Shown here: piece by piece, positions 746-61,638 of the stretch | Numbering within the stretch: position 1 is the stretch's first letter | Layout: each line of letters starts with the position of its first letter | The notes under the pieces: model-generated | What the model was told of the DNA's origin: nothing | The model's database searches: none | What the model saw: only the letters and a program-made list of their open reading frames with translations | Program-made: the position numbers and the translations under genes | Virus record (IMG/VR): IMGVR_UViG_3300005611_000002 | Span: 32,001-96,000 of that record | DNA: 64,000 nt | Origin: a virus | Taxonomy: Duplodnaviria > Caudoviricetes | Strand: one strand, 5' to 3'

Positions 746-1444
746 ATGAAAGCTTACGCAATAGTTATTTCTGGTAACGAGACTTCAGAAAAAGGCTACA
801 AGAACTTGATGAAGAGTTCTTCACGAGTCGATAACGAGTTCTTTATTGAAAAGTTTGATGCAGTAACTCCAGAAAGAGTAGATGATCTCATAAAAGAACT
901 CGATATAGAATGGACTTGGCCTCATACAGGATCAGTATTCAGTAAAAAGACTGGAATTAAAAAAGTTGGTTACGGCGGCAAAGATCCTCGCCGAAGAAGA
1001 GCGTGCGGAATGAGTCACTATTTACTTTGGAAACAGTGTGCAGAGACTGAAGAACCGCTTCTTGTATTTGAACACGATGCCATCTTTACTGCTAAGCTTC
1101 CATTGGAACCTCTTCTGAATTGTGAATATTCGATCATAGGTTTGAACAACCCATATGGAGCTACTCGTCTTCCACACAAATATGATGCCATAGTACAAAA
1201 AAGTACTGAAGAGATACTTCCAGTTCCTGAGATTGATAAGGAATTTATTGCTCAAGGTATTGCAGGAAACTCTGCTTATATGATCAAACCTGCTGGAGCT
1301 CAGAAGTTACTTGAGCTTGTAAAGGAGCACGGCATGTGGAATAATGATGCAATTATGTGCAGACAATTGATGCCAGACATGATAGGTGTCACAAAAACAT
1401 ATTATACAACAGTGCAAAAACTACCAAGCACAACTATGGGTTAA
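746..1444 (+). CDS. Glycosyltransferase family 25-like protein
   Basis: FDAVTP, ACGMSHYLLWKQC, LVFEHDA, AYMIKPAGAQKLL motifs; ATG at 746 preferred over 728. Confidence 0.75.
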   Translation: MKAYAIVISGNETSEKGYKNLMKSSSRVDNEFFIEKFDAVTPERVDDLIKELDIEWTWPHTGSVFSKKTGIKKVGYGGKDPRRRRACGMSHYLLWKQCAETEEPLLVFEHDAIFTAKLPLEPLLNCEYSIIGLNNPYGATRLPHKYDAIVQKSTEEILPVPEIDKEFIAQGIAGNSAYMIKPAGAQKLLELVKEHGMWNNDAIMCRQLMPDMIGVTKTYYTTVQKLPSTTMG

Positions 1445-1448
1445 ATAC

Positions 1449-2111
1449 ATGTGGAAAAAGAGAGAAGACTGCCAAAAATTTAGACATTACGGCCTTCAAA
1501 GAAGTGGAACAAATTTTTTGGAAGGCTTGATGTACAGATACTTTGAAGTTTGGTGTCGTAATGGTGGATCTGGACCAAAGTGGAAACATTCTCTTGAGAT
1601 GGCTCCATTTGAAAGTGATATGTTTTATCTCGTCATAGCAAAAAATCCTTACTTATGGATAGAAAGTATTGCGTTTCGAAATCCAATGGATTATTTAGAA
1701 AGACAAAAACTTTATTCAGCAGGAGAACCAACTTCAGCAGATTTAATGGCGGGACCCAATAAGATCAATGTGATCAATACGGCAAAAACTTGGAATCATT
1801 TTTATAACAATTGGAAAGCCTTTGCCTCTTATGAAAAGGTATATTGCATGAAATATGAAGACTTACTAGTTGAAGAAAAAAGAAAATCAATACTCGAAGA
1901 TATTCACGTAAAATTTGGTTGTGAATGGAGGATTGACCCTTTGAAGTATAAGAAACCAGAAACTTCTATACTAGATCGAAAGCAAGATACGAATAAAACT
2001 AAGTACTATTTGTCGGAAAGGCCAAAGAATCTGACAGATATTCAGATACGAGCAATTAGTGAAAATATTGATCAAGATCTATTCGATTTTTTCAGTTATG
2101 CGCGTTTATAA
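1449..2111 (+). CDS. Sulfotransferase-like P-loop protein
   Basis: GLQRSGTNFL, KNPYLWIES, MKYEDLL motifs; start at ATG 1449. Confidence 0.7.
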   Translation: MWKKREDCQKFRHYGLQRSGTNFLEGLMYRYFEVWCRNGGSGPKWKHSLEMAPFESDMFYLVIAKNPYLWIESIAFRNPMDYLERQKLYSAGEPTSADLMAGPNKINVINTAKTWNHFYNNWKAFASYEKVYCMKYEDLLVEEKRKSILEDIHVKFGCEWRIDPLKYKKPETSILDRKQDTNKTKYYLSERPKNLTDIQIRAISENIDQDLFDFFSYARL

Positions 2112-22390: not shown

Positions 22391-24375
22391 ATGAATGTAG
22401 ACTGGGCGCAAAAATTTATTGACAGTGATCTGATGGATCAAATTCTAGCATACAAGATCCGTGAAGCGATTATTCTAAACGAAGCAGCTATTATGAGTCT
22501 CGAAGGCCGAACAGACCTTGAAGATTACGAAAAACAAGATCTTGAAGATTGTTACTCTTGGACAAAAAGTCTCGAAGACGTCTATACTTACTTTGGCGGT
22601 AATCTGATGGACCTATCAAAATGAGATGGTATGACTATGCTTCGTGCTTGCTTTTTGCGGACTTGATTTCTGCTAGTTTGGTATCATACAACATAATTGG
22701 GTTGACATTGGGCACAGTTGGGTATATAATCTACGAAAGATTGCAAGTTATGAAAAAGGATACAGACTGATGCCCTATAAAGAAGTATGGATTGATGATG
22801 CCGATATCAATGATTTTGACGATCAAGAACTCATTGATGAGCTTGAAAGTCGCGGTTGGTGGGTCTCACCTGAAAAACGCTGGGAACCTCTTGAATTGAC
22901 CAATGATCAAAAAGACTGGATCTGTGAAAAGATTCAATCTGAAAATCTTGACGTAACTGACATGACTGCAAAAGAAATATATAATGAACTGAGGAAGAAA
23001 TAATGTACACTTGCGATAACTGGGTCGTCATCTTCGTGAATGGTGACGATCCACATTATAGATTGCTAGTTGGAACTTCTGGAGGATATACGACGGGTGA
23101 TTCGTGGCGTATGAATAGCGGCATCACTAAAGTAGAGGAAGACGATCGCTACTATTACTTTTATGGTTCGAGTGGTTCTTGTTATAAGTGCCACAAAGAA
23201 GCATATTGCCTTCGTATGAATAATGCTCATGTTTGGAATTCGCTGCAAGAAAGACATGGAGATAAGGTTGAAATGATGCCAGAAGATACTGACTGGCTAA
23301 ACAAGGACTGGATTATATCATGAAATTTAGCAGACACACTGAAGACGGTACTAAGATCGAAATGGAAATCGCCGATCACACATATATTGGTGAAGTACTT
23401 CAAGAGTTTCAGAACTTCCTTCGTGCTTGTGGTTATGTGATCGAATATAACAAAGTTTTGGATCTGGTGGATATGGACGAATGACTGATAAGAAATCGTT
23501 GTTAGATACAATCTCGCAAGAGTCTGAACGCTTCCAAGAACTGATTCGACAGGAAGATATTGAAATGGATCAGTGGTGGGATGAACTCCCTCAAGAGGAC
23601 CAAATGCGAGCGTTCTACTCAGTCGTGAAGCGTCTTGTAAAAGGTGATATAACTGATAGAGGCTCTTATCGTTATGTTCTATATGACGTGTTTGGTTTTG
23701 GGGCCGAGAGTTACATGCTCGGAATGAACTGCGGTTATATGACACTACACAACAGCATCTATACACCGGAAGAGATGCGAGAGCTTCGTGATCGTGAACT
23801 TGCTTCAAAAGGTATTGAAGTAGAAACTACAAAATGGGATATGAAAAATGAGTGAATGGTATATAGCACCAGAAATGGTGATGAATGATATTGCTAAACT
23901 TGATGCTTCTATGTTGTTTGGCTCTAGATCTATGGCGTCACGTCCTGCTGTAGAAGGGTTTGATCCTGCGTTTATGATCGGTTCTCAGATCACAGATGAG
24001 ACCGACTGGGACTTCAGTGCTCCTTACACTGAAGAGAATCACGCGGCTCTTATTGAAGCCGGTTTTACGTATTGGCCGCCAGATGATCTATCTTATAAAG
24101 ATAGTTTGACTACTGGAGTGTATATCAAGACATACATGCATAAGTTTGATATGGACAATCCTGTAATTTATAGCACTCCTCCTGTAGCAAACGTCGTTCT
24201 TCGTAACGACTTCTATATCTTTCGTCAAGTATGGGACTCTATAGATCCAGAGTTCTATTACAAGCATATCTGGAAACGCAGTCCAACTTACGATTTTCAA
24301 CAATTGTCATTGACAAAAGAAACTATCCGTGATATAATGAATCAACTATTTAGGACTGCTAAGGAAATGATATGA
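22391..24375 (+). other. Run of small early hypothetical genes (22391-22624, 22770-23003, 23003-23323, 23320-23484, 23481-23855); 23848-24375 is possibly nucleotidyltransferase-like
   Basis: Tightly coupled ORFs; LFGSR...DWDF motif in the last one. Confidence 0.6.
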
Positions 24376-24407
24376 GCGACATCTGGGTAACATCCGATTC
24401 ACATTAA
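24372..24407 (+). pseudogene. Stranded original N-terminus of the metallophosphoesterase (MSDIWVTSDSH*)
   Basis: Matches MSKDIWVSSDFH at 25335; its ATG overlaps the upstream stop (ATGA); it ends at the HEG stop codon. Confidence 0.85.
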
Positions 24408-25237
24408 TTCTGATAATTCTTACAATTATCAAAATGATATCTTGTCATACTTGACGCACCACCTTTTTTATTGCAATGAGGGCACTCTTTTATGACTTGA
24501 GGCCCTTTGGGTTTTCTCATTTTTTCTTTTGTAGCATCACTTAATTTTCTTCCTTTTCTAATTTTGCTTAATTTTTGACGGACAGTATCGTCAAAAATTC
24601 TCCCTTTATTCGGGCCTGTCAATTCTCCACTTTTTATTCTAGGATCTTCTACTGAGACATAGTGATAGTTACCTTCGGAATCTTTCATTGTAGTCATGCC
24701 TTTAGTTATACCAGTAAGATTTTCATTTTTAATAAATTCTTCCCGTGTAACTTTAATTATATCATTTTTTTCTGTTTTAGCAATTACTATATTTTTTGCT
24801 TTGCATGATATTTTGCGCGATATTTCTTTTTTTCTTTCTCCTGACATATTGGCATGATATTCTAAAGTAGTTTTTGATTGTAACATTCTAAATTCTTTAT
24901 TGAGACTTTCATATAATCTACTGTTGATTTTTTTATTCTGATAGCTTCTTAATGAGTGGGCTGCAAATGTTATGCTATTTACAGTAGGAAAAGCTTTCCA
25001 TAATATCACATGAGCAATAAAATGCTGTCTGGCGGTTAAAACCGCGCAATTCCAAGGATACAATTTAAAAGATTCGTATTTAGGAAACATATCATTTGCT
25101 TTTGGGCATATGTGATGTTTTTCAGTATATCCTTCATAATCAACATTTTTTAGTTGACATTGCTCGATGAATGTTATATAACGGTTTATATAATGGGGAT
25201 TATGTGGTTTTGAAGACAATATGGTATAAATATCCAT
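24404..25237 (-). mobile_element. Antisense HNH homing endonuclease (NUMOD3-like repeats, C-terminal CPHC...HFDNCK)
   Basis: EKHHICPK...LTARQHFIAH; AT-rich. Confidence 0.88.
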
Positions 25238-25318
25238 TGCTGGAACTCCTTTCTTTAGGTGGTATAGTTCTAGGGTTAGTGGGTATTTGCCGTACCGCGA
25301 CTAACACTATTATTTATA
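25225..25318. ncRNA. Conserved HEG-leader structured element, copy 1
   Basis: Bounded by inverted TATAAATA boxes; stems CTGGAACT/AGTTCTAG and GTTAGT-G-GGTA/TACC-GCG-ACTAAC. Confidence 0.7.
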
Positions 25319-25334
25319 ATGGAGCATACATATA

Positions 25335-25886
25335 ATGTCAAAAGATATTTGGGTTTCTAGTGATTTTCATTTAAATCACTCAAACATTTTGAAATTCACT
25401 GATAGTAATACTGGAAAACCGATCCGACCTGAATTTTCATCCGTTCAAGAAATGAATGAAATTATAATACAAAGACACAATAGCTGTGTAAAACCTGGAG
25501 ACAAATTTTACACTCTTGGAGATGTGTTCTTTGGTGACAAGGAATGGTTCAAAAAAATGTGGCCTCGTCTGAATGGTAGCAAGCGTCTCATCGTTGGCAA
25601 CCACGACGATATCAAGTTTCTATCCTCTGGTGGATTCTTTGCAAAGGTCATGATGTGGCGCATGTTCCCTGAGTTTGGTTTGATGTTTAGCCATGTTCCG
25701 CTTCATGAAAGCAGTTTGATGCGAGGAGCAAAAGGTGACAAGCCGATGTTAAATGTGCACGGGCACACTCACAGTAATGGATCGCCAAAAGGCCCTTATA
25801 CTTCAGTCTGTGTGGAATTGAGAAATTATACCCCAGTCCACATTGAAGACTTGGCGGCGGAGGCTAAAAAATTAATTAATGTGTAG
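25335..25886 (+). CDS. Calcineurin-like metallophosphoesterase
   Basis: SDFH, LGDV, VGNHD, FSHVP, VHGHTH motifs. Confidence 0.92.
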   Translation: MSKDIWVSSDFHLNHSNILKFTDSNTGKPIRPEFSSVQEMNEIIIQRHNSCVKPGDKFYTLGDVFFGDKEWFKKMWPRLNGSKRLIVGNHDDIKFLSSGGFFAKVMMWRMFPEFGLMFSHVPLHESSLMRGAKGDKPMLNVHGHTHSNGSPKGPYTSVCVELRNYTPVHIEDLAAEAKKLINV

Positions 25887-26744
25887 TCTACCTCTGACCC
25901 ACCCTTCCTGAATAGATTGATATTTTTCTATCATTTTATTGACTTTACCGTTATTAATACAAATCTTTCCGGTTGTTCCCACGTGTTTTGGTTTCTTGCT
26001 GTATACCCTCCCTCTGGTCCATCCTTCGGGTATATGTTCTCCCTTAAACATTTTAGAAGTTTTTCCGTCATTGATCCAAACTGATTTTTTTGGTGAGTTT
26101 TTTGTCATACCTCTATACCAACCTTCAGGAATAGTTTCTTCGGGTTTTATTCTTTTATTTGTTTTTCCATTTGTGATGGTTATAGTTCCAGCATTATTCC
26201 CTCTTAATTCGCCAGTTTTAAATCTAACGTCGTCGCTAGAAACGTAATGACCGTTTCCGCTTCTATCTAAAGCAAATGTTTTTCCCTTCGTGTGCCCGCT
26301 AAGTTCTTTATTCTCGTCGAATTCTTTTTTGCTTACTCTGAATACTTTATTATCATGTTTTACACTTACTGTTCCGGACATTTGTTCAGAAACTATAACG
26401 GAATAAGCCACTTTTATAGATTCATATATTTTACTACTTTTTATTTCATTGTAATTACTCATAATACCAAATGCGCGAATCATTGACTCATTTTGATACA
26501 CTTTCCATAACATCATATGAGCAATAAAATGTTGTCTGGCGGTTAAAACTGCACAGTTCCACGGATAATTGCTAAATGAACTATACTCAGGAAACATATC
26601 CTTTGCTTTGGGACAAATGTGGTGTTTTTCAGTATAACCTTCATAATCAACATTTTTTAGTTGACAATGTTTGATAAATATGATATAACGGTTTAAATAA
26701 TGGGGATTATGTGGTTTTGAAGACAATATGGTATAAATATCCAT
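25872..26744 (-). mobile_element. Antisense HNH homing endonuclease with three (W/I)INxG...IPEGW repeats
   Basis: N-terminal ~80 aa nearly identical to the 24404-25237 product. Confidence 0.88.
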
Positions 26745-26825
26745 TGCTGGAACTCCTTTCTTTTAGGTTGCAAGTTCTAGAGTTAGTGGGTATTGACAGT
26801 ACCGCGACTAACATTTTTATTTATA
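26732..26825. ncRNA. Conserved HEG-leader structured element, copy 2
   Basis: Same architecture as copy 1. Confidence 0.7.
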
Positions 26826-26839
26826 AAAGTAAAAATTCG

Positions 26840-26956
26840 GGCCATATCCATCAGAACAAGTCTCCAAAGGGACCTTACCATTGTGTATGTGTAGAACAGA
26901 CGAACTACACTCCTGTTCACATCGAAGATCTAGCAAAAATTGCGAGAAAGATCTAA
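26840..26956 (+). pseudogene. Stranded original C-terminus of the metallophosphoesterase
   Basis: GHIHQNKSPKGPYHCVCVEQTNYTPVHIEDLAKIARKI*; 27/38 identical to the product of 25761-25886; stop overlaps the next ATG (TAATG). Confidence 0.92.
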
Positions 26957-27312
26957 TGGCAAATGTATTCGTATTCGGCTCTAATCTTGCTGGAAGGCAT
27001 GGTAAAGGTGCTGCGCTGTACGCCAAACAACACTACGGCGCAGTATATGGAGAGGGTATCGGTAGAACTGGTAACTCATACGCTATTCCAACTAAAGGTT
27101 ATCAATTGAATGTTCTTTCGTTAGAACGTATTCAAGACTTTGTCACAGAGTTCGTTCAACATACACGAGAGAATCCTGAAGATACTTTCCTGCTTACACC
27201 AATTGGAACTGGTTTGGCTGGTTATGATAAGACTGAGATATTCAAACTAATTCGTAACTGTGCACCACTTCCTTCTAATATCGTATTCACAAAGGAGTGG
27301 TTTAACTTATGA
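26956..27312 (+). CDS. Conserved phage protein, macro/A1pp-like fold candidate
   Basis: VFVFGSNLAGRHGKGAA...YAIPTK...TPIGTGLAG. Confidence 0.65.
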   Translation: MANVFVFGSNLAGRHGKGAALYAKQHYGAVYGEGIGRTGNSYAIPTKGYQLNVLSLERIQDFVTEFVQHTRENPEDTFLLTPIGTGLAGYDKTEIFKLIRNCAPLPSNIVFTKEWFNL

Positions 27313-30300
27313 GTAAGTACGAAGTAGCACCCGGTCTATGGATCGGTTCTGAGATCGGTGACATCAATCGAGAAATCAAGAGTCTTATGAAACGACTCGT
27401 AGATGGCGACGAGAGTGTCCTACCCGAGATCACTCGCCTTTCTCGTGAAAAAGAGAAACTGATGATGCCTAAGAGACTAAGGAGAGAAAAATGAACGTAG
27501 GTGAAGCAATTGAAGGACTATTCTACGCATTTGTCGTTGCGGTGACCGCTGCAATTTTTCTTGCAACTTATGTGCTCTCGCAGACAGTTTTTTCATTGAC
27601 ACCTTGGGATGTCTGTGTTAAGATGGAAACAGACGCTGCAAAAGTGCAGTGTATGGAGGCACATTATGACTAAAGAACAACTACTCATCAACCTTGAGTA
27701 CTGGGCAGACTGTTTGGAGAACCCTACCTACAACAATCTTGAAGTGGGCTTTAGACACACGCCTCTCTCCAAGGACGAGATCATACAACGATATAAAGAT
27801 GAATGCCGCACGACTCGAATCGCTATACTGAGAGTGATTGAGATGATAAACGAGGATGGAATAGAATAAAATGGAAATCAAAATTAAACCACAAAAGATT
27901 ATCCCTGCCAGCTATAGTGTTCGCTTTGATGAAGGCGGTGATTATACTGGATACATTGTTCAGCCTCAGCCATATGAAGATCGTCTCCGCCCTGACATCG
28001 AAGAATGGCTCAATGATAACGCTTTAGGTTGGAACGTAACTTTTGATCGTGGCGATTGGGGTGATGGTCCGGCTTTTGTAAAAATAAATTTCGAAACTGA
28101 AGCACAAGCAAGATCGTTTGCTGCTGAATTTACTAACATTCCCTGTCCTAATTCTCGCAGTCGTGGACATTGCCCGCATATGGGTTCTGCACTTAGTCTT
28201 ATTGATAGAGAGACTGGCGATGGTAAGGGCAAATGCTTACACTGTGATCACAGATTTCAAATCTTAACCAAAGATAATAGAGAAGATTTTCTAAAACATA
28301 ATATTGAGGATGACATAGAATGAACTGGGAACAATGGTTGTCTGCAAATCAATATGATGTTGACTTTGGTGATGATACTATCGATCTGATGCGACAAGCT
28401 TATGTTGCTGGTCTTAGAATGGCGCATGACTTACTTGATAATGCGGAACCAGAAGACTTTCATTGGTGCCGCCATGAAATTGAAAAACTGATAAAGGAAA
28501 GCGAATGAGATATGCCATATCATCTCCAGAGGAAACATGGGTGAAAGTGTGTTACAAATTCTTTGAAAGACACGATTTAACTTATTGGTATGTAAGGGAT
28601 AGAGAACAGGCTTTCCGTGAAATGATGAAGGACTCTAATGGTACTTTAGATCCAACTTGGTTAAGAAATAAGATAGACGAACTTTATAGGAGTGTTGGAA
28701 TATGAGCTACAGTAGAAACACGCAACTGTTCTGGGAACTGCTCGATCTGAGCGATGCTGAGCTTATGGTCGATAACGACATGTGCATTATCACATATAAC
28801 TTTACATACAATGATGATGAAGACCAAGAAAGTGAGAGCCAGGCGTTTGATTTTGGTCCTAAGGATCTTGCTTGGTTGTTCGGAGAGAAACTTGGCATTT
28901 ATATGACGGAGGTGTGAAATGAGTGAAAACGTAGGAAGCAGCGGAATTATGGTTCCGCTCTCGACAAAGATGAGTGAAGAAGAGCGCGAGGAAATTACTG
29001 AAGCTATTTGGGATAGCGGCAACAGTTTGGTTCAGATCAACTATGAAGGGACCATCGCGTATACAAATCATCGAAGCGACGGTTATGGTATCACATTTGG
29101 CGTAACCGCGGATAAGAACGACTTGGGTTATATTCGCACGATCATGGATCACTATGGCTTTGGCATCGTCGAAGAACAGGCTCGACCGTATTCTTGCTAT
29201 TGGTACAACGGAACTGATTCGGATATGGATATGTTGGAACTTGAAGATTTTCTTGTAAGAACGAAACAAAGTAGTTGACAAATGCTCGCGAATAATATAG
29301 TATGATAATATATTCGGTGGATAAAGGAGAATCACCATGGATGCTACTGTTACTCGCCTCGCACAAGAGACGGACTTCGTTGGTTATGCGATCGTTGATT
29401 GGGACAGCTACTTCGGTAAAACTACTTGCCCGAACAAAGCTGCTGCGATGTGCTTGGAACGGTATCGTACTGGTGGCGAAGAGCTTGGTCAGTTCATCAA
29501 GTGCTACTCGATTGGTACTCTTGGTGAATATTCCGATGCTCCTGGCAAGCGTGTAGTAGAAGAATATGACTGGGATCGCGCGCTTCGTGAACTTATGGGT
29601 TGACATTTGTTTTGAAATGGTTTATACTGATTCTATAAGGAATGGAGATATACAATGATCAATCCTGCTACTCGCCCGCAAGATAAACTTAATGAATTCA
29701 CGGGAAGGTTGCTTGGCACTTATCCTCCTACTGTTCGTCTTCGCAATGGAACACTTGTTCAACCTGAATATAAGCCTGCAGAAGATGAATACTGCACAGA
29801 TGCTTTCTATGCTGAAGACTATCGCTACTGCTGGAACTTGGATGGTACTAGTGTAACTCGCAGTGATTATGATATGATGGAGATTGTTCGCAATGACTGA
29901 CTATACAGAAGCCGCCCGCTGCGAAGCCACTGTTCGTCTTGCTGATGGAAGTGAATGGACGATCCACCTTGTTCCTGCTGATACGGATGGTTGGAACGTT
30001 CCTGTGATCCGTGCGTATGACTACACCGACGATACTCAAATTTGGAACACTGATGGCACTGCGCTTTCGGCTGATGCTGACATTGTGGAGATTATGGAAT
30101 GACTAAGTATGTGACAACTCATTTACCTGAAGAAGAGATTGACCGCTTACGCCTTAAAGCATTTGCAAGTAATGACCCTGAAGATAAACTGGCGTATTAC
30201 AAGGCAACCTCACTCTACTTCCAAGAACGCCATGAACGTGCTATGAATAGGGAGGCTAAAAATGACTGATCGCGTTTTTGAAGATGCTCGCAGCTGGGAA

Positions 30301-36662: not shown

Positions 36663-37253
36663 ATGAACTACACTTTCCCTGAAATCCGCACTATTGAAGA
36701 TGTGCTTCCGCATATCGAAGGTCGTGAAGAATTCATCGTAGCAGAGCGTGAAGGATATACCGTCGTAAATTACGTTGTGGCGATGGCTGACACCTTTGAT
36801 ATGACTGGCCCTGATGATCTTGGCGGTGCTATTCGCCGTGAGTGCAGAGGTTTGATCTTCGACCGTGACGGAAACATCATGAGTCGTCCGTTTCATAAGT
36901 TCTTCAATGTGAACGAGCGTGATGAAACTCAGTCTCATGTGATCGATATGTTGCAGCCGCATGTAATCATGGAAAAGATGGATGGATCTATGATTCGCCC
37001 TATCTTGGTTGACGGTTACTTGCGGCTTGCTACGAAAATGGGTGTGACTAACGTTGCTATGGATGCAGAGGCTTTTATGGCAAAGAATACCAAGTATAAG
37101 GATTTCTGCATATGGTGTTTGGATGAGGGGTTAACACCTATTTTTGAATGGACTAGTCCATTCAATCAAATCGTTCTTCCATATGAGAACGATATGTTAA
37201 CCCTTCTTGCTGTTAGGGAAAATATAACTGGTCGCTATCTCAGCATCAAATAA
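36663..37253 (+). CDS. rnlA: RNA ligase 1, N-terminal part (motifs I, III, IIIa)
   Basis: ECRGLIF..SRPFHKFFN; EKMDGS; TPIFEW; LLAVRENITGRY; matches the T4 Rnl1 layout. Confidence 0.88.
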   Translation: MNYTFPEIRTIEDVLPHIEGREEFIVAEREGYTVVNYVVAMADTFDMTGPDDLGGAIRRECRGLIFDRDGNIMSRPFHKFFNVNERDETQSHVIDMLQPHVIMEKMDGSMIRPILVDGYLRLATKMGVTNVAMDAEAFMAKNTKYKDFCIWCLDEGLTPIFEWTSPFNQIVLPYENDMLTLLAVRENITGRYLSIK

Positions 37254-37911
37254 TATCATATTTTTCTAGGACAGACTTCTCAAAGGTCTGTCCATTTTTC
37301 ATTTGGTTTATTATTCTAGTTCTAGTTCTTTTATATACCACATCAGGTGACTTCAAATAAGACACATCAGTATTATAGTTTCCATTTGCTTTTCTAGTTT
37401 CAACTCGTTTTTTGATAGATTCTTTAGTGTTTGCTGCGGACATATCGTTGTTGTATGTGCCCAATTTTTTACGAGTTTCTACTCTCTTTTGTATTTCTTC
37501 CTCTGTCCACCCACCTTTAGCTTTTCTAACATTCCAACTCTGTTTACCATTTTCTGTACATTTATCAATGTTATTGTTTAGATATGTTGAAATCTTGTTT
37601 TTCGTTTCTTCTGTGTGTGGTATACCTTCTCTACTTGGTGGAGCATTTCCGCCTAGTGTTAAATTATAACATCTCGGATCATTTACAAGATCATTTGTAA
37701 CAATCTCTGCTTCTTTTTCAAGTGCAGATTCTCTAGTATCAAAAAACTCTAGTATTTCTTTTGTAAACGTTTCTTTGCCATACTTTTTTATGGACTCTGT
37801 AATCGCTATGCCAGAACCCATATATCCATCAGACAAATCTGATGTGCTGTGAACACCTATATAAAATTTCAAATTGCTGTTGTTAGTGACTTTGTATAAA
37901 TAGTGATACAT
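37246..37911 (-). mobile_element. Antisense GIY-YIG (Seg-like) homing endonuclease
   Basis: YLYKVTN...FYIGVH...YMGSG...CYNL. Confidence 0.88.
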
Positions 37912-37989
37912 GCTGGAACTTCCTTTCTTGTTCTAGAGTAGTTGGGGAGACTCTCACATATCCCGCGAACTACATTACTATTTATACAA
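37892..37989. ncRNA. Conserved HEG-leader structured element, copy 3
   Basis: 13-bp perfect inverted ends TTGTATAAATAGT/ACTATTTATACAA; stems CTGGAAC/GTTCTAG and GTAGTT-G-GGGA/TCCC-GCG-AACTAC. Confidence 0.7.
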
Positions 37990-38052
37990 GATAGTAGTTG
38001 ACATTCCACAAAAACCAATATAATATGAACTTAGATGATAAGGAGTGATTCT

Positions 38053-38613
38053 ATGCTACTGAAAAAGATTTGTGAGTTTGATATCCCTACCGTGGATACC
38101 ATATTGCCATTTACTAAGATTGAATCTCTTTTAGAATTTACACGTGACCTTGAAAACGTTGAAGGCTTCGTCGTTGCTTTCGAAGATGGTCACAGAATAA
38201 AAATCAAAGCAGATCAATATGTTCGTATTCACAAGACTATTGACCGTATCACGTTTGATCGTAACATCGTTGACCTAATCATCAACGAAGAAGTTGACGA
38301 TATTATTCCGATGCTGCCGACTGTTCAAGTAGACCGCATTCGTGACTTCGAAACTCGTTTCTGGGAAGCGTTTGTAGCAACTGAGGACCGTCTTGCTGTA
38401 TATCAAACCGGTTGCGCACTGGTCTACAAGAATGACCGCAAGCGTGTTGCTTTGGAATTCATTCCGACTCTGGAGCACAAAGCAGATGCTTCGTTCATCT
38501 TTCGTATGTTGGACGGTCACGAAGTTCGTGATTTGATGATAGATCACATTCGTAAAAACATTAGTTCCAATACTCGTTGGGATGCTTGTGCAAAGTGGAT
38601 GGGAATGTGTTGA
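38053..38613 (+). CDS. rnlA: RNA ligase 1, C-terminal part (motifs IV, V and C-domain)
   Basis: EGFVVAFEDGHRIKIKADQYVRIH; own promoter (TTGACA at 37998) and AAGGAG RBS. Confidence 0.85.
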   Translation: MLLKKICEFDIPTVDTILPFTKIESLLEFTRDLENVEGFVVAFEDGHRIKIKADQYVRIHKTIDRITFDRNIVDLIINEEVDDIIPMLPTVQVDRIRDFETRFWEAFVATEDRLAVYQTGCALVYKNDRKRVALEFIPTLEHKADASFIFRMLDGHEVRDLMIDHIRKNISSNTRWDACAKWMGMC

Positions 38614-51607: not shown

Positions 51608-52279
51608 ATGTTTCATCATGTAGACCATGGAATTGTTTTACCGAAGATCACTCGTAAGAATACTGAAGTAGGAAGAAAATACTTCACGCCAGAAGGTAAC
51701 GCATATCCTTCTATCACAACTGTGTTGTCTATTCTCGGAAAGGACGCGATCCAAGAATGGCGCAATCGAGTAGGAGAGGAAGAAGCAAATCGTGTTTCTG
51801 CATTTGCTTCGAAGCGAGGAACTGCAGTTCATAAGATTGCAGAAGACTATCTTAACAACGAACCAGATTACAAGAAAGGACACATGCCAACAAGCGTGGT
51901 GTCCTTCAATGGTATAAAGTCGATACTTGATGAGAGACTAAACAACATCTGGATGCAAGAGACTTTCCTGTATAGTGATAAGCTCAAGTGCGCAGGTCAA
52001 GTTGATTGTATTGCAGAATTTGATGGTGAACTCTCGATTATCGATTTCAAAACGTCTCGTAAGGAAAAGAAGAGATCTTGGATTAGAGGTTATGAAATGC
52101 AAACTTGCTTTTACGCCGCGGCGTTTTTAGAACGTACAGGCATTGCCATAAAAAATTATGCAATAATTATAACAGTAGATGAAGGAAATTCTCAAGTTTT
52201 CACTGGAAATACTTATGAGCCCTTTCATGATTTCTTATCATGTCGTCAAAAGTACGAAGAATATGTAAGATCTCTTTGA
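51608..52279 (+). CDS. PD-(D/E)XK exonuclease (Cas4/RecB-like) with a replaced C-terminus
   Basis: YPSITTVL; RGTAVH; AGQVDC; IIDFKTS; Q...Y. Confidence 0.88.
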   Translation: MFHHVDHGIVLPKITRKNTEVGRKYFTPEGNAYPSITTVLSILGKDAIQEWRNRVGEEEANRVSAFASKRGTAVHKIAEDYLNNEPDYKKGHMPTSVVSFNGIKSILDERLNNIWMQETFLYSDKLKCAGQVDCIAEFDGELSIIDFKTSRKEKKRSWIRGYEMQTCFYAAAFLERTGIAIKNYAIIITVDEGNSQVFTGNTYEPFHDFLSCRQKYEEYVRSL

Positions 52280-53153
52280 GCCATTTTGTATTTTTTTGAT
52301 ACCAACTCCGACCTAATGTGATACGATATTTTGCTAAATAAATTTTAATCTCCATCACTTCTTTTCTTTTTGATTTTAATTTTCTCGTTTGAATATAACA
52401 CCCAGTCGTTATTTCCGGTGCTTCCTTTGTGTATTTCACTTTACTAATATCTGTTTTAAGTTGATCAATAAGATTTCTTTTTTCTATTATCTCTATACTA
52501 ATTTCTTTACAATTATCAAAATGGTGTCTAGACATTGCAGATGCGGATCTTGCCTTTGCTTTTTTCCCGCAGTGTGGGCATATTATATCTGGTTTTGAAT
52601 CTATAGTTTGCTTTCTTTTTTCTATTTGTTTTTTTCTAGTATTTTCTGAAATTTTAGATTGTCCGTTTCTAAATTTTTCACATCTTTTTTCATATTCTTC
52701 TTTAGTATAAGATTTCCAAATTTTTTTGTGTGTTTTTCGTGACTTTTCTTTAGATTTTTCTGATATAACTCTTCCAGGATATGATCTAGATTTACTAGAT
52801 TTACTTATTAGTTCGCTTCTTCTTCTTTGTACGTCTTCAGGTAACTCACTTAGTAATGGAAACCCTCTATTGTGAGTTATGTTCAACCATTTATCTGATT
52901 TTGATACTTTTAATCTTCGAAGTACACATTCTTCCCAAATTAAAGCATCTTTATGATTATTAAATTTTTTGCGAATTTGTATTACGTCTGGTTCGCCATT
53001 GATTTCTCTAAATTCCTTTACGTGTTTTGATGAAGTAAAGTATTTGACCCACAGATCAGACGGATGACAATTTTTTGCATAGCGAACACCATAATACCAT
53101 TTATCATATTTTGTCCAACCGATAAGATACGTGTAGGGAGTATAAATAGACAT
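52200..53153 (-). mobile_element. Antisense GIY-YIG-like homing endonuclease with CPHC...HFDNCK motif
   Basis: YTYLIGW...WYYGVR...YFTSSK...WE..VL...WLN; AT-rich. Confidence 0.82.
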
Positions 53154-53232
53154 GAGCTGCGTTCCTTATTTTTAAATGCGTTAACGTAGAGTAGTTGGGA
53201 CTGGTACTCCGCGAACTACATTAATATTTATA
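53141..53232. ncRNA. Conserved HEG-leader structured element, copy 4
   Basis: Compensatory stem CTGCGTT/AACGTAG; GTAGTT-G-GGA/TCC-GCG-AACTAC; inverted TATAAATA ends. Confidence 0.7.
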
Positions 53233-53237
53233 ATTTT

Positions 53238-53429
53238 GGTTACTTCGTCCAAGCAAGCTTCTACGCCGCCGCATTTCTTGAAAGGACTGGAATTGCTATC
53301 AAGCAAGGTGTAATCTTGATCACTGTCGATGATGGTGAACCTCAAGTCTTCAAGATCAATACCTATGACTACCTCGAGCACTTTCTTGAAGTGCGAAAAA
53401 AGTTCAAACAAATGTACGAAGGGGGTTGA
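53238..53429 (+). pseudogene. Stranded original C-terminus of the exonuclease
   Basis: GYFVQASFYAAAFLERTGIAIK...MYEGG*; 63 aa, 34/63 identical to the product of 52088-52279; no start codon. Confidence 0.92.
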
Positions 53430-59270: not shown

Positions 59271-60095
59271 CTAGCACTCTTCTTTCTTGTGTTTACAGTT
59301 ATCGAAATGATATCTTTGACCACCTTTCCCTTGAAACCTACAATGCGGGCACGTAAATGGCTTGCGGATTTTTGCAGACTTTTTCATATTTTCTTTATGT
59401 TCACCAGATTTGGGCACACCTTTTAGAGTTTTAGAAATGTTATTCTTAGTTTCATCTGAATGTACCCTACCTTTCATAGAAGTAGATATTTTTTCAGGAT
59501 CAGGTTTTTTCCTGTGTTTCATTTTTTCTTTATAACCAGGTCTTTGCCATATCTCCTTTCCAATCTCAGATCTTTTCTGTCTTTGTTCTTCGGTCAAATT
59601 CATTGGAACATCCTTCTTTGCTTTCGAGATAGATGCGCATTTTTTACCCTTATTCCAAGGAATATTACCTTTCTTACAAGGATTATTTTCAGACATTTCT
59701 TTACTCATTATCTTCTTTCGCTCAGCGCCCATGTCACTATCCCAAAACTGTTTCTTCAAAACAGATGCTGCTTTACCCGACAAACCAATAGCACGTTTTT
59801 TCACATTATAATATCTAATAGTTTCGTTACGTTTATTTTCTCCCAAACACAACTCTTCATCTTTGATCATGTCAAGATACTTTTGTTCTAGTGCAAATAA
59901 CTCTTTGGGATCATTACCGTAATAAAACTCAAGTATTTTCCTTCTGAAATCATGAGGTCTTTTCTTGATTGCGCTATCCATGAAACCAGTTGATGAAGTA
60001 TATCCATCATCCAATGAACCCATATGGGATCCAATACAAAACCACTTTCTTTTGCGGTCATACCAAATATATACGAAACCTGAATAAATATCCAT
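59271..60095 (-). mobile_element. GIY-YIG (Seg-like) homing endonuclease downstream of gp23
   Basis: GFVYIW...CIGSHMG...YTSS...EQKYL...YYN; NUMOD3-like repeats; CPHC...HFDNCK. Confidence 0.85.
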
Positions 60096-60173
60096 TGCTG
60101 GAACTCCTTTCTGTAAATGTTTAGTTCTAGAGTAGGTGGGACTGGTACTCCGCGACCTACATTTTTATTTATT
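60083..60173. ncRNA. Conserved HEG-leader structured element, copy 5
   Basis: Ends AATAAATA/TATTTATT; stems CTGGAACT/AGTTCTAG and GTAGGT-G-GGA/TCC-GCG-ACCTAC. Confidence 0.7.
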
Positions 60174-60234
60174 AGAATAAGTTTGGTACACAGACAAAAA
60201 TGTAATCTTTTTGATAATATTTTGCCGGGGCAAT

Positions 60235-60300: not shown

Positions 60301-61638
60301 TCAAAACAGATTTGCAACTTTTACTCTTCTGTAGTACACGTTGGTGTTTGTTTCCAGACGACCCAGAGCAGTTGCAACACCAGTGATGCCGCCTTCTGCG
60401 AATGGGTTAGCAACCATGCCATAACGAGTCTTGAACCCGATTTTAGGCTGGAAGCTGTTTTCACCAACTGCACGGTACATCTGTAGCGGTACATATGGGC
60501 AGTAGAAGAGGCCTGCGTCGAATGCGCTGGAACCCTTGTAACCAACTACGAGATAGTTGCTACCTGCATATGGATCGATGTAAACTCTGTAGCGACCGTT
60601 GAGAACACCAGCGAAGGTATTACCTGTATCGTCTACGTTCAGTGCGTTGCTGTTCAGTGCTGGAGTATAATCCAGGACACCTGCCATCTGAAGAGCGGAT
60701 GCAACATCGGAAGAACAGATAACGATGTTACCCTTACCTCTACGAGTCGCTTTTGCGATCGCGTTGGCTTCTTGCTCGATCTGGAACATCAGACCCTTGA
60801 ACTTCTCAACCGACCAACGACCATTTGCGTCAACATCTAGGTCGAAAGTACCAGCTGCAGCAGTATTAGCAGCACCAGTTACAGCAGTTGAGTAGATGGT
60901 ACGAACAAGCTCGCGGTTGATTTCTACAAGAATTTCAGACTGTAGAATGTTTGCAAGCTCAGTTTCAGCATCTAGACCATGAACAGCACGTAGGTCTTGT
61001 GCAAGTTCAGTGGTGTATTCTGCTTTCAGTGCGCGGCTCTTTGCAGATACAGTTACTTTCTCGATTGAGAATGCCATTTCTGCGAAAGTGTTTGCGCCAT
61101 CAGCACCAAGAGATTCTGCAACACCAGTTGTCATACCTGTACCAGTGCTAAACTGTGAAGTATTAGCAATATCGGTTGGCATCATTGAACCGGTATGTGT
61201 ACCTGTACCAGAGAAGTCGGTATCAGCTTCATTGTAGAATGCTTCAGTACCAGTTTGTGATTCGTAACGTGAACGCATTGCAAAAATCAGACCGGTTGGA
61301 CCAGTCATTGGCTGAACACCTGCAATGTCATATGCCATCAGGTTTGGCATCGCGCGACGTACGAGGCTGATCAGAACTGGATCGTAACCAGCAACTGGAC
61401 CACCAGCAGCTGCAGAAGTACTGAAACCACCGGTTCCTGCTGCGTTAGTTGGTGTCTCCATGAGAAGTGAGCTCATTGAGATTGACTGATCGCCAGACTC
61501 CATGAGTGCTTTCTCGGTGTTTTCAAGAATCGTAGCAGTAACTGCTCGTCTATGCTGATCCTTGATTGGCTCGAAAGTAGAGTGCTCAAGTACTGGACCC
61601 CACTTTTCCACCAGAGCTTGATAGTTTGACTGTGTCAT
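60301..61638 (-). CDS. 23: Major capsid protein
   Basis: DPVLISLVRR.MPNL; GVQPMTGPTGLIFAMR; KSRALKAEYT.ELAQDL; FYCPYVPL; FQPKIGFKTRYG. Confidence 0.98.
   Translation of the reverse strand: MTQSNYQALVEKWGPVLEHSTFEPIKDQHRRAVTATILENTEKALMESGDQSISMSSLLMETPTNAAGTGGFSTSAAAGGPVAGYDPVLISLVRRAMPNLMAYDIAGVQPMTGPTGLIFAMRSRYESQTGTEAFYNEADTDFSGTGTHTGSMMPTDIANTSQFSTGTGMTTGVAESLGADGANTFAEMAFSIEKVTVSAKSRALKAEYTTELAQDLRAVHGLDAETELANILQSEILVEINRELVRTIYSTAVTGAANTAAAGTFDLDVDANGRWSVEKFKGLMFQIEQEANAIAKATRRGKGNIVICSSDVASALQMAGVLDYTPALNSNALNVDDTGNTFAGVLNGRYRVYIDPYAGSNYLVVGYKGSSAFDAGLFYCPYVPLQMYRAVGENSFQPKIGFKTRYGMVANPFAEGGITGVATALGRLETNTNVYYRRVKVANLF

Follow-up and report, generated by a model that had tools for sequence, protein, structure and literature searches.

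Bases 32001-96000 of the 194,645-bp virus record IMGVR_UViG_3300005611_000002 (hereafter the window, 64,000 nucleotides (nt) in length) come from an uncultured aquatic T4-like phage; the record has direct terminal repeats and a G+C content of 39%. Within the window, a metallophosphoesterase gene stands between two homing endonuclease genes, HEG1 and HEG2, that run antisense to it, and beyond each of these lies a short remnant of a phosphoesterase gene end, here called the start stub and the tail stub (Table 1). The original prediction, made by a reader without database searches, had proposed this order of start stub, HEG1, working gene, HEG2 and tail stub. It had also placed the start stub in an ATGA overlap with the stop of the upstream gene and the TAA of the tail stub in a TAATG overlap with the ATG of the downstream gene, and had counted 27 of 38 residues shared between the tail stub and the tail in use. 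Inspection of the locus confirms each of these features. It also bears out that the stubs end and begin at metallophosphoesterase metal-ligand motifs, namely D-x-H (SDSH) at the end of the start stub and G-H-x-H (GHIH) at the beginning of the tail stub. The stop codon of HEG1 overlaps the stop codon of the start stub, and HEG2 overlaps the end of the in-use gene by 15 nt.

The in-use protein of 183 amino acids (aa) matches phrog_547 (phosphoesterase, 1.8e-44) and the PDB entry 1xm7 (calcineurin-like protein aq_1665, 1e-5). It has more than 1000 homologues, many of them with PF00149 or PF12850, and among them are metallophosphoesterases from the Sinorhizobium phages phiM12 and phiN3 (55% identity). 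A Pfam search at E <= 0.01 returned no match for the window's phosphoesterase and nothing useful for either endonuclease or the flanking genes. All five metal-ligand motifs are kept (SDFH, GDV, GNHD, SHVPLH and GHTH) and, together with the profile similarity, mark the protein as a calcineurin-like metallophosphoesterase. Its open reading frame (ORF) is complete without splicing, with a ribosome site, start and stop of its own.

Both endonucleases match phrog_655 (homing endonuclease; 1e-36 for HEG1 and 1.5e-31 for HEG2) and phrog_12434 (HNH endonuclease; 2.5e-18 and 4e-16, respectively). HEG1 shares ~29% identity over 92% of its length with annotated Mob-like HNH endonucleases of T4-like phages, and the HNH motif H-H-I-x-P ... 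N ... H-F-I-A-H is visible in the HEG sequence. Neither protein was matched by the Pfam HNH models at E <= 0.01, and HEG1 had no match among PDB sequences; two Pfam matches within HEG1 were set aside, NUMOD3 as below the cutoff and nitroreductase as spurious. HEG1 and HEG2 resemble each other in the leader and in the first third of the ORF, where 329 nt are 87.5% identical and 71 of the first 90 residues agree, and are unlike in the C-terminal two thirds, presumed to be the DNA-binding part. The common leader and HNH domain place both in the same antisense cassette type, as had been proposed. The 5' parts of the two genes (24994-25319 and 26501-26826) also form direct repeats on either side of the working phosphoesterase gene, and recombination between them would delete it.

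An Rfam search of positions 23800-27400 at E <= 1 gave no match, introns included, and the intron reading was therefore dropped. An intein is impossible because the endonuclease genes are antisense to their host gene. The locus shows neither the ribozyme core of a group I or II intron nor the in-frame Hint domain of an intein, and it has these features of a free-standing HNH (Mob-type) homing endonuclease gene: an HNH domain, no intron or intein, presence and absence variation at the site, and co-conversion of the flanks.

Table 1. Features of the phosphoesterase locus, in window coordinates
Feature	Position	Strand	Description
Upstream gene	23848..24375	+	175 aa; no family found
Start stub	24372..24407	+	MSDIWVTSDSH*; native first 11 codons and a stop created at the junction
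HEG1	24404..25237	-	277 aa; antisense Mob-like HNH homing endonuclease gene
TATAAATA in HEG1 codons 2-5	25225-25232	+	points into the in-use gene
HEG1 leader	25238..25334	-	97 nt; AGGAG before the HEG1 start
Covarying hairpin of HEG1 leader	25274-25304		
TATAAATA of HEG1 leader	25311-25318	-	
In-use phosphoesterase gene	25335..25886	+	183 aa, begins MSKDIWVSSDFH
Imported N-terminal tract	25335..25545	+	codons 1 to ~68; boundary near codons 62-75
Native middle	25546..25762	+	~codon 70 to codon 142/143
Imported tail	25763..25886	+	GHTH type; codons 143-183 and stop
HEG2	25872..26744	-	290 aa; antisense Mob-like HNH homing endonuclease gene
TATAAATA in HEG2 codons	26732-26739	+	points into the tail stub and the next gene
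HEG2 leader	26745..26839	-	95 nt
Hairpin of HEG2 leader	26782-26812		
TATAAATA of HEG2 leader	26818-26825	-	
Tail stub	26840..26956	+	GHIHQNK...ARKI*; native last 38 codons and stop
Downstream gene	26956..27312	+	118 aa; phrog_2072

Native stubs and imported gene ends

To place the two versions of each gene end, 130 homologues were aligned and the gene was divided into start, middle (residues 13-142) and tail. Across the 130 homologues, the tail stub is the closer of the two tails in 101 and the in-use tail in 26. The 13 homologues closest to the window in the middle (98-104/130 residues identical) match the tail stub at 27-37 of 38 residues and the in-use tail at 24-28, with the stub ahead in all 13. 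The tail stub shares 37 of 38 residues with the intact protein of one close relative (P0009), an identity that rules out a chance resemblance. Inspection of the start stub reveals the same pattern, where DIWVTSDSH is identical at nine of nine positions in three homologues (P0002, P0003 and P0009). The remnants are thus nearer than the in-use ends to the HEG-free allele, and the original prediction withstands the refutation test that it had set itself.

Alleles lacking one or the other endonuclease gene were found as short Logan contigs from the public runs X1 and X3. The run X1 contig (559 nt, ~93% identical) follows the window over 25265-25762 and resumes over 26843-26901, skipping 1080 nt with one letter between, and it reads ...N-V-H-G-H-I-H-Q-N... 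across the join. This relative therefore has the HEG1 leader and the in-use start, lacks HEG2 and keeps the native tail in place, which shows that cassette 2, exactly 1080 nt in length (25763-26842), was inserted inside the Gly codon of G-H-x-H. The run X3 contig follows 24300-24405 with four differences and continues through the codons W-N-H-A-N-I-L-R-F, an uninterrupted native gene start. Cassette 1 accordingly begins directly after the His codon of D-x-H, its junction with the start stub lying after base 24405. Alignment with HEG-free relatives, proposed at the outset as a check, thus shows a gene body that passes directly into the tail stub, and a start stub that continues into a native body. 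A further contig, from run X2 (window ~25718-25849), carries the in-use tail to 25849 and then a native-type end, L-A-K-I-A-K-K-I and stop; on the basis of one contig and a 30-nt consensus, it could be a recombinant of spare tail and tail stub without HEG2.

Codon-wise sliding identity resolves the in-use gene into tracts with different nearest relatives among the viral contigs compared. Over codons 1 to ~70, nucleotide identity is 68-90% to contig L062 (80-90% over 25335-25545) and 51-72% to L001 and L063. Over codons ~70 to 145, L001 is closest at 71-90%, and beyond codon 145 no close relative was found among those compared. Phylogenies built separately for the N, middle and C segments, as the original prediction had advised, likewise group the segments with different relatives. 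The N segment falls in a 99* clade of 11 rows, seven of them of SSDxH type, with P0001 the nearest row at 88%; grouping it with native-type relatives is rejected (p-AU 0.0018 by the approximately unbiased (AU) test, in which the groups were defined with the identity tables already in view, so that p-values are indicative only). The rows nearest to the middle segment are P0002, P0003, P0007, P0006 and P0004, all native-type relatives, and holding the middle with such relatives is not rejected (p 0.37). All five HEG2-linked tails group with the in-use tail in a 98* clade of 12 rows, and the tail stub stands beside P0009.

The two tails are identical at 67 of 114 nt (59%) and use a different codon at 21 of 27 conserved residues. 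Co-conversion extends over ~65-70 foreign codons beside HEG1 and a 41-codon foreign tail beside HEG2. The working enzyme had been described from the outset as a three-part chimera, and the segment trees and sliding identity uphold that description; the one refinement concerns the N-terminal import, which by the same comparisons reaches beyond the first 12 codons, to ~65-70.

Recurrence of the cassettes and their leader

The combination of HEG2, a foreign tail and a native tail stub is also present in five other contigs. Orthologues of HEG2 occupy the same position at 62-73% identity in L074, L095, L096 and L097 and at ~70% in L075. A metagenome scan with HEG2 returned the full-length orthologues (~70-73%) of L074 and L075, where the order is phosphoesterase gene, antisense HEG2, leader and a tail stub that is TAATG-coupled to the next gene. 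Selection by tail type led to the same arrangement: three homologues (P0013, P0019 and P0041) were picked solely for an in-use tail of the GHTH...VEL type, and all three of their contigs (L095, L096 and L097) had a ~290-aa antisense gene and a native-type tail stub. The contig of P0090, which has a VEM-type tail, was without this layout. The tail stub of L074 is of the same tail type as the gene of L004, whose body also closely resembles that of L074. The stub begins GHIHQN in the window, L074 and L096, SHIHQN in L097, PSPEGPY in L095 and VNIEDL in L075, and it is shortened to 29 or 9 codons in other phages. Such differing starts would be the look expected of eroding dead DNA.

The HEG1 layout recurs in three other phage lineages, L002, L100/L101 and L102, where orthologues (50-58% identity) lie antisense before an SSDxH-type start and a native-type start stub lies upstream. 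Among the contexts examined, four of eight SSDxH-type starts were accompanied by HEG1, compared with none of 14 starts of the common [ITV]SDTH type. Allele type and endonuclease do not always go together, as is shown by the four SSDxH contexts without HEG1 and by two GHTH tails of the VEM sub-type without HEG2. In sum, HEGs are present in L002, L074, L075, L095-L097 and L100-L102 and absent from L001, L003-L010, L062, L063, L065, L098 and L103.

Each endonuclease gene is headed by a conserved leader. Comparison of 12 leaders (25238-25334, 26745-26839 and 60096-60185 in the window, with those of L002, L012, L074, L075, L095-L097, L100 and L102) reveals a common TATAAATA, a hairpin, CTCTAGAAC, AGGAG and ATG GAT ATT TAT. 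TATAAATA, the T4 late-promoter box, is present in all leaders on the HEG strand. The 6-bp outer stem of the hairpin is paired in all cells of the alignment and shows compensatory changes in five of six pairs, a result matched by 0 of 500 shuffles, and a short G-G/C-C stem inside it is likewise shared. HEG codons 2-5 (M-D-I-Y) give a second TATAAATA when read on the opposite strand, and the far end of the HEG1 leader supplies, on the plus strand, the GGAG ribosome site of the in-use gene. A 226-nt metatranscriptome contig that is 100% identical over 25225-25450 was not used as evidence of transcription, since it may derive from carried-over DNA and from either strand.

The same leader heads a GIY-YIG endonuclease gene at 59271-60095, which makes the leader a module common to different nuclease families. 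This GIY-YIG gene adjoins the major capsid gene (60301-61638) and resembles HEG1 in its leader, in its first codons (M-D-I-Y) and in a Cys-rich motif near the C-terminus that ends Y-H-F-D-N-C-K. The likeness suggests that nuclease and DNA-binding modules may have been shuffled between families.

Proposed homing cassettes and the alternatives

The observations support an interpretation that we hold with high confidence, in which a single metallophosphoesterase gene of a T4-like phage was invaded by two related intron-less homing cassettes in independent events. Each cassette comprises an antisense Mob-type HNH gene behind the conserved leader, with its late promoter box of T4 type, covarying hairpin and Shine-Dalgarno site, and a foreign, recoded version of whichever gene end it displaces. 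Cassette 1 brings a new ribosome site and N-terminus, and cassette 2 a new C-terminus and stop. During mixed infection, HEG1 or HEG2, made late, would nick or cut a HEG-less allele near codons 11-12 or 143, respectively. From the junction positions and the recoding of the in-use ends we infer that cutting takes place near these codons, with cleavage probably at the two conserved active-site motifs. Break repair would then copy the cassette from a co-infecting donor. On the spare-end side, the crossover would fall inside the gene, at a depth of ~200 nt with cassette 1 and at the Gly codon with cassette 2. Opposite the spare end, the gene end native to the recipient would stay in place but be severed from its gene, with the join made either through the donor stub and neighbour gene as a homology arm or illegitimately. 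The recoded spare end would restore the reading frame, would protect the allele from re-cutting and would limit recombination with the stub.

Several observations weigh against this account. The HEG-free contigs are short and come from relatives 93-96% identical, not from the strain of the window itself. The AU test leaves the in-use tail and the tail stub as possible sisters (p 0.15, over 38 columns). The start stub ends at codon 11 in the window, ~15 in L002, ~14 in L102 and ~50 in L100; with junctions that vary in this way, either insertion is not exact to the base or the stubs have eroded, and the differences fit an illegitimate join as well as later erosion. Finally, there are HEG-less alleles with an in-use-type N-terminus (L062, L003, L065 and L103) or a GHTH-type tail (L065 and L098).

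The alternative that survives best, although we judge it improbable, accepts the insertions as described and holds that HEG1 and HEG2 have since lost their homing activity, the arrangement now being simply inherited. Nuclease activity is read here from sequence, neither protein is recognized by the Pfam HNH models, and some phages keep foreign-type ends without any HEG, all of which speaks for a fossil cassette. Such a fossil is harder to reconcile with two intact HEG ORFs that keep the H-H...N...H motif, or with orthologues (50-73% identity) that are intact in eight other contexts. HEG-plus and HEG-minus forms also occur in present-day metagenomes, run X3 yielding both a HEG1 piece and the HEG1-free junction.

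Duplication and divergence in place would dispense with import altogether: the gene ends would have doubled within the lineage, one copy would have drifted and the HEGs would have come separately. The sister relationship of the two tails that the AU test does not reject is what such a history predicts. The extent of divergence makes it very unlikely, since tails that are 59% identical, with 21 of 27 conserved residues recoded, contrast with a gene-body difference of ~7% to the HEG2-free run X1 relative. In addition, the in-use tail shares its 98* clade with the HEG2-adjacent tails of four other phages whose gene bodies are unlike, and placement of the N segment in the native clade fails the AU test (p 0.0018).

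We give very little credence to an assembly artefact, in which the contig would be a chimera of co-occurring strains and the stubs mis-joined reads. The genome is indeed metagenome-assembled and related strains do co-occur, but a separately filed 2925-nt contig (L076), which may share the sample, is 100% identical from two genes upstream, across the start stub, HEG1 and the working gene, into HEG2. Logan contigs from other runs span the tail/HEG2, leader/tail-stub and HEG1/leader/gene-start junctions, and the same layout is found in at least eight independent assemblies. Equally hard to credit is a spliced or switchable system, in which the stubs would serve as exons or alternative gene ends and would be connected to the middle by splicing of RNA or protein, or else by programmed recombination. 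In its favour, each stub has kept the frame of its neighbour, and the 38 codons of the tail stub are undamaged. Against it, no Rfam family matches at E <= 1, antisense endonuclease genes preclude an intein, the in-use ORF retains all five metallophosphoesterase motifs together with a ribosome site, start and stop of its own, and other phages have tail stubs cut down as dead DNA would be.

The interpretation of two independently inserted homing cassettes can be extended, tentatively and with more doubt than conviction, to a family of ORF-invading modular elements composed of a generic leader, swappable nuclease (HNH or GIY-YIG) and DNA-binding modules and a recoded spare end. The generic leader would carry back-to-back late promoter boxes and the covarying hairpin, and the spare end would let the element enter the essential-motif region from either end with no need of an intron or intein. 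Transcription of the downstream gene would be re-driven by the plus-strand promoter box within the first codons of the nuclease. Recombination between spare end and stub could later delete the nuclease, leaving an uncuttable chimeric allele. If such a family exists, its members would be a main source of mosaic active-site regions in aquatic T4-like phage enzymes.

Relation to known systems and further loci

The closest published parallel is found in fungal mitochondria, where mobile ORF (mORF) hybrids have been described in atp6 of Allomyces macrogynus, in atp6, atp9, cox2 and nad3 of Glomus sp., in atp9 of Rhizopus and in cox2 of Mortierella (PMC3630166). In these hybrids an endonuclease ORF and a foreign in-frame C-terminus lie inside a gene, and the displaced native C-terminus is the one closer to relatives, an arrangement read as endonuclease-driven horizontal transfer (PMC3630166). 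The locus described here is alike in having a foreign in-frame gene end and an endonuclease ORF inside a gene, with the native end displaced and nearer to relatives. The mORF hybrids involve LAGLIDADG or GIY-YIG endonucleases on the same strand, sometimes in phase with the gene (atp6 and nad3), in contrast to the antisense HNH genes of a phage. Each nuclease gene here has its own late promoter box and leader and is not fused in frame. Given an HNH nuclease, antisense placement and its own promoter, the phage case would work like an mORF hybrid but outside those element families. Unlike the mORF hybrids as described (PMC3630166), one of the cassettes replaces an N-terminus and supplies a ribosome site, and a single gene has been invaded at its two ends.

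Intron-less homing by free-standing endonucleases of T-even phages (SegF, SegG, MobE and others) provides a second comparison (PMC2988022, PMC2790892). Common to both are free-standing nuclease genes of Seg/Mob type, co-conversion of flanks, conserved genes as targets and a Mob architecture of an HNH domain with a variable C-terminal DNA-binding part; spread by break repair, and expression controlled by late promoters and RNA hairpins, would be common as well. The free-standing genes of T4 are intergenic and have no duplicated gene end, whereas the cassettes here lie inside an ORF, carry a spare end and leave a stub. Insertions that split phage genes are also known, namely mobE in nrdA of Aeromonas phage Aeh1, mobA in the topoisomerase gene 39/60 of T4 and a seg gene in gene 43 of phage 25 (PMC2988022), and a review of mobile DNA in T4-related phages describes coding-region insertions as gene-splitting (PMC2988022). 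These too place a free-standing nuclease gene in the coding region of a critical enzyme with no intron or intein. Split genes yield two polypeptides that reassemble; the phosphoesterase, in contrast, remains a single polypeptide thanks to the replacement end that the cassette supplies. Homing endonucleases borne by introns or inteins likewise target conserved active-site codons and vary in presence at a fixed site. The cassettes differ from them in having no ribozyme or intein, with harm avoided at the DNA level by the spare end and not by splicing.

We found no account of the spare-end layout in phages in a literature search that was not exhaustive. The new elements are the replacement of an N-terminus, the invasion of a single gene twice over, and the evidence from populations. 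A recoded spare gene end, used at both 5' and 3' ends, would represent a third harmless route into coding sequence besides introns and inteins. The locus keeps a before-and-after record for one gene: its native stubs and foreign ends are both preserved, the boundaries of insertion are exact, and relatives without the HEGs are at hand. Elements of this kind would shuffle active-site segments of phage enzymes between lineages and in this way give rise to protein mosaicism. In annotation, short stubs that are coupled to adjacent genes, and chimeric ORFs next to antisense nucleases, are to be read as homing scars and not as new small genes or alternative ends.

Of the genes that flank the locus, the upstream gene had no relatives in a search of viral contigs, and a megablast comparison of the region with 50,697 phage records returned no match, and hence no near-identical HEG-free genome. 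A third instance of the layout in this genome is found at 51608-53429 of the window, where the end of an exonuclease gene (51608-52279) is overlapped by an antisense GIY-YIG-like gene (52200-53153); behind the shared leader lies an orphan paralogous tail of 63 codons (53238-53429) with the same G-Y start as the in-use tail. An RNA-ligase-like gene (K-M-D-G) occupies two ORFs, 36663-37253 and 38035-38613, with an antisense GIY-YIG gene (37246-37911) between them, and its homologue in L074 (1-774, minus strand) runs uninterrupted across the split point. This gene (36663-38613) appears to be one split by a homing endonuclease and less likely a spare-end case. In L098, an antisense gene of 292 aa (786-1664, minus strand) abuts the end of a Pif1-like helicase gene and may be a similar cassette with another target.

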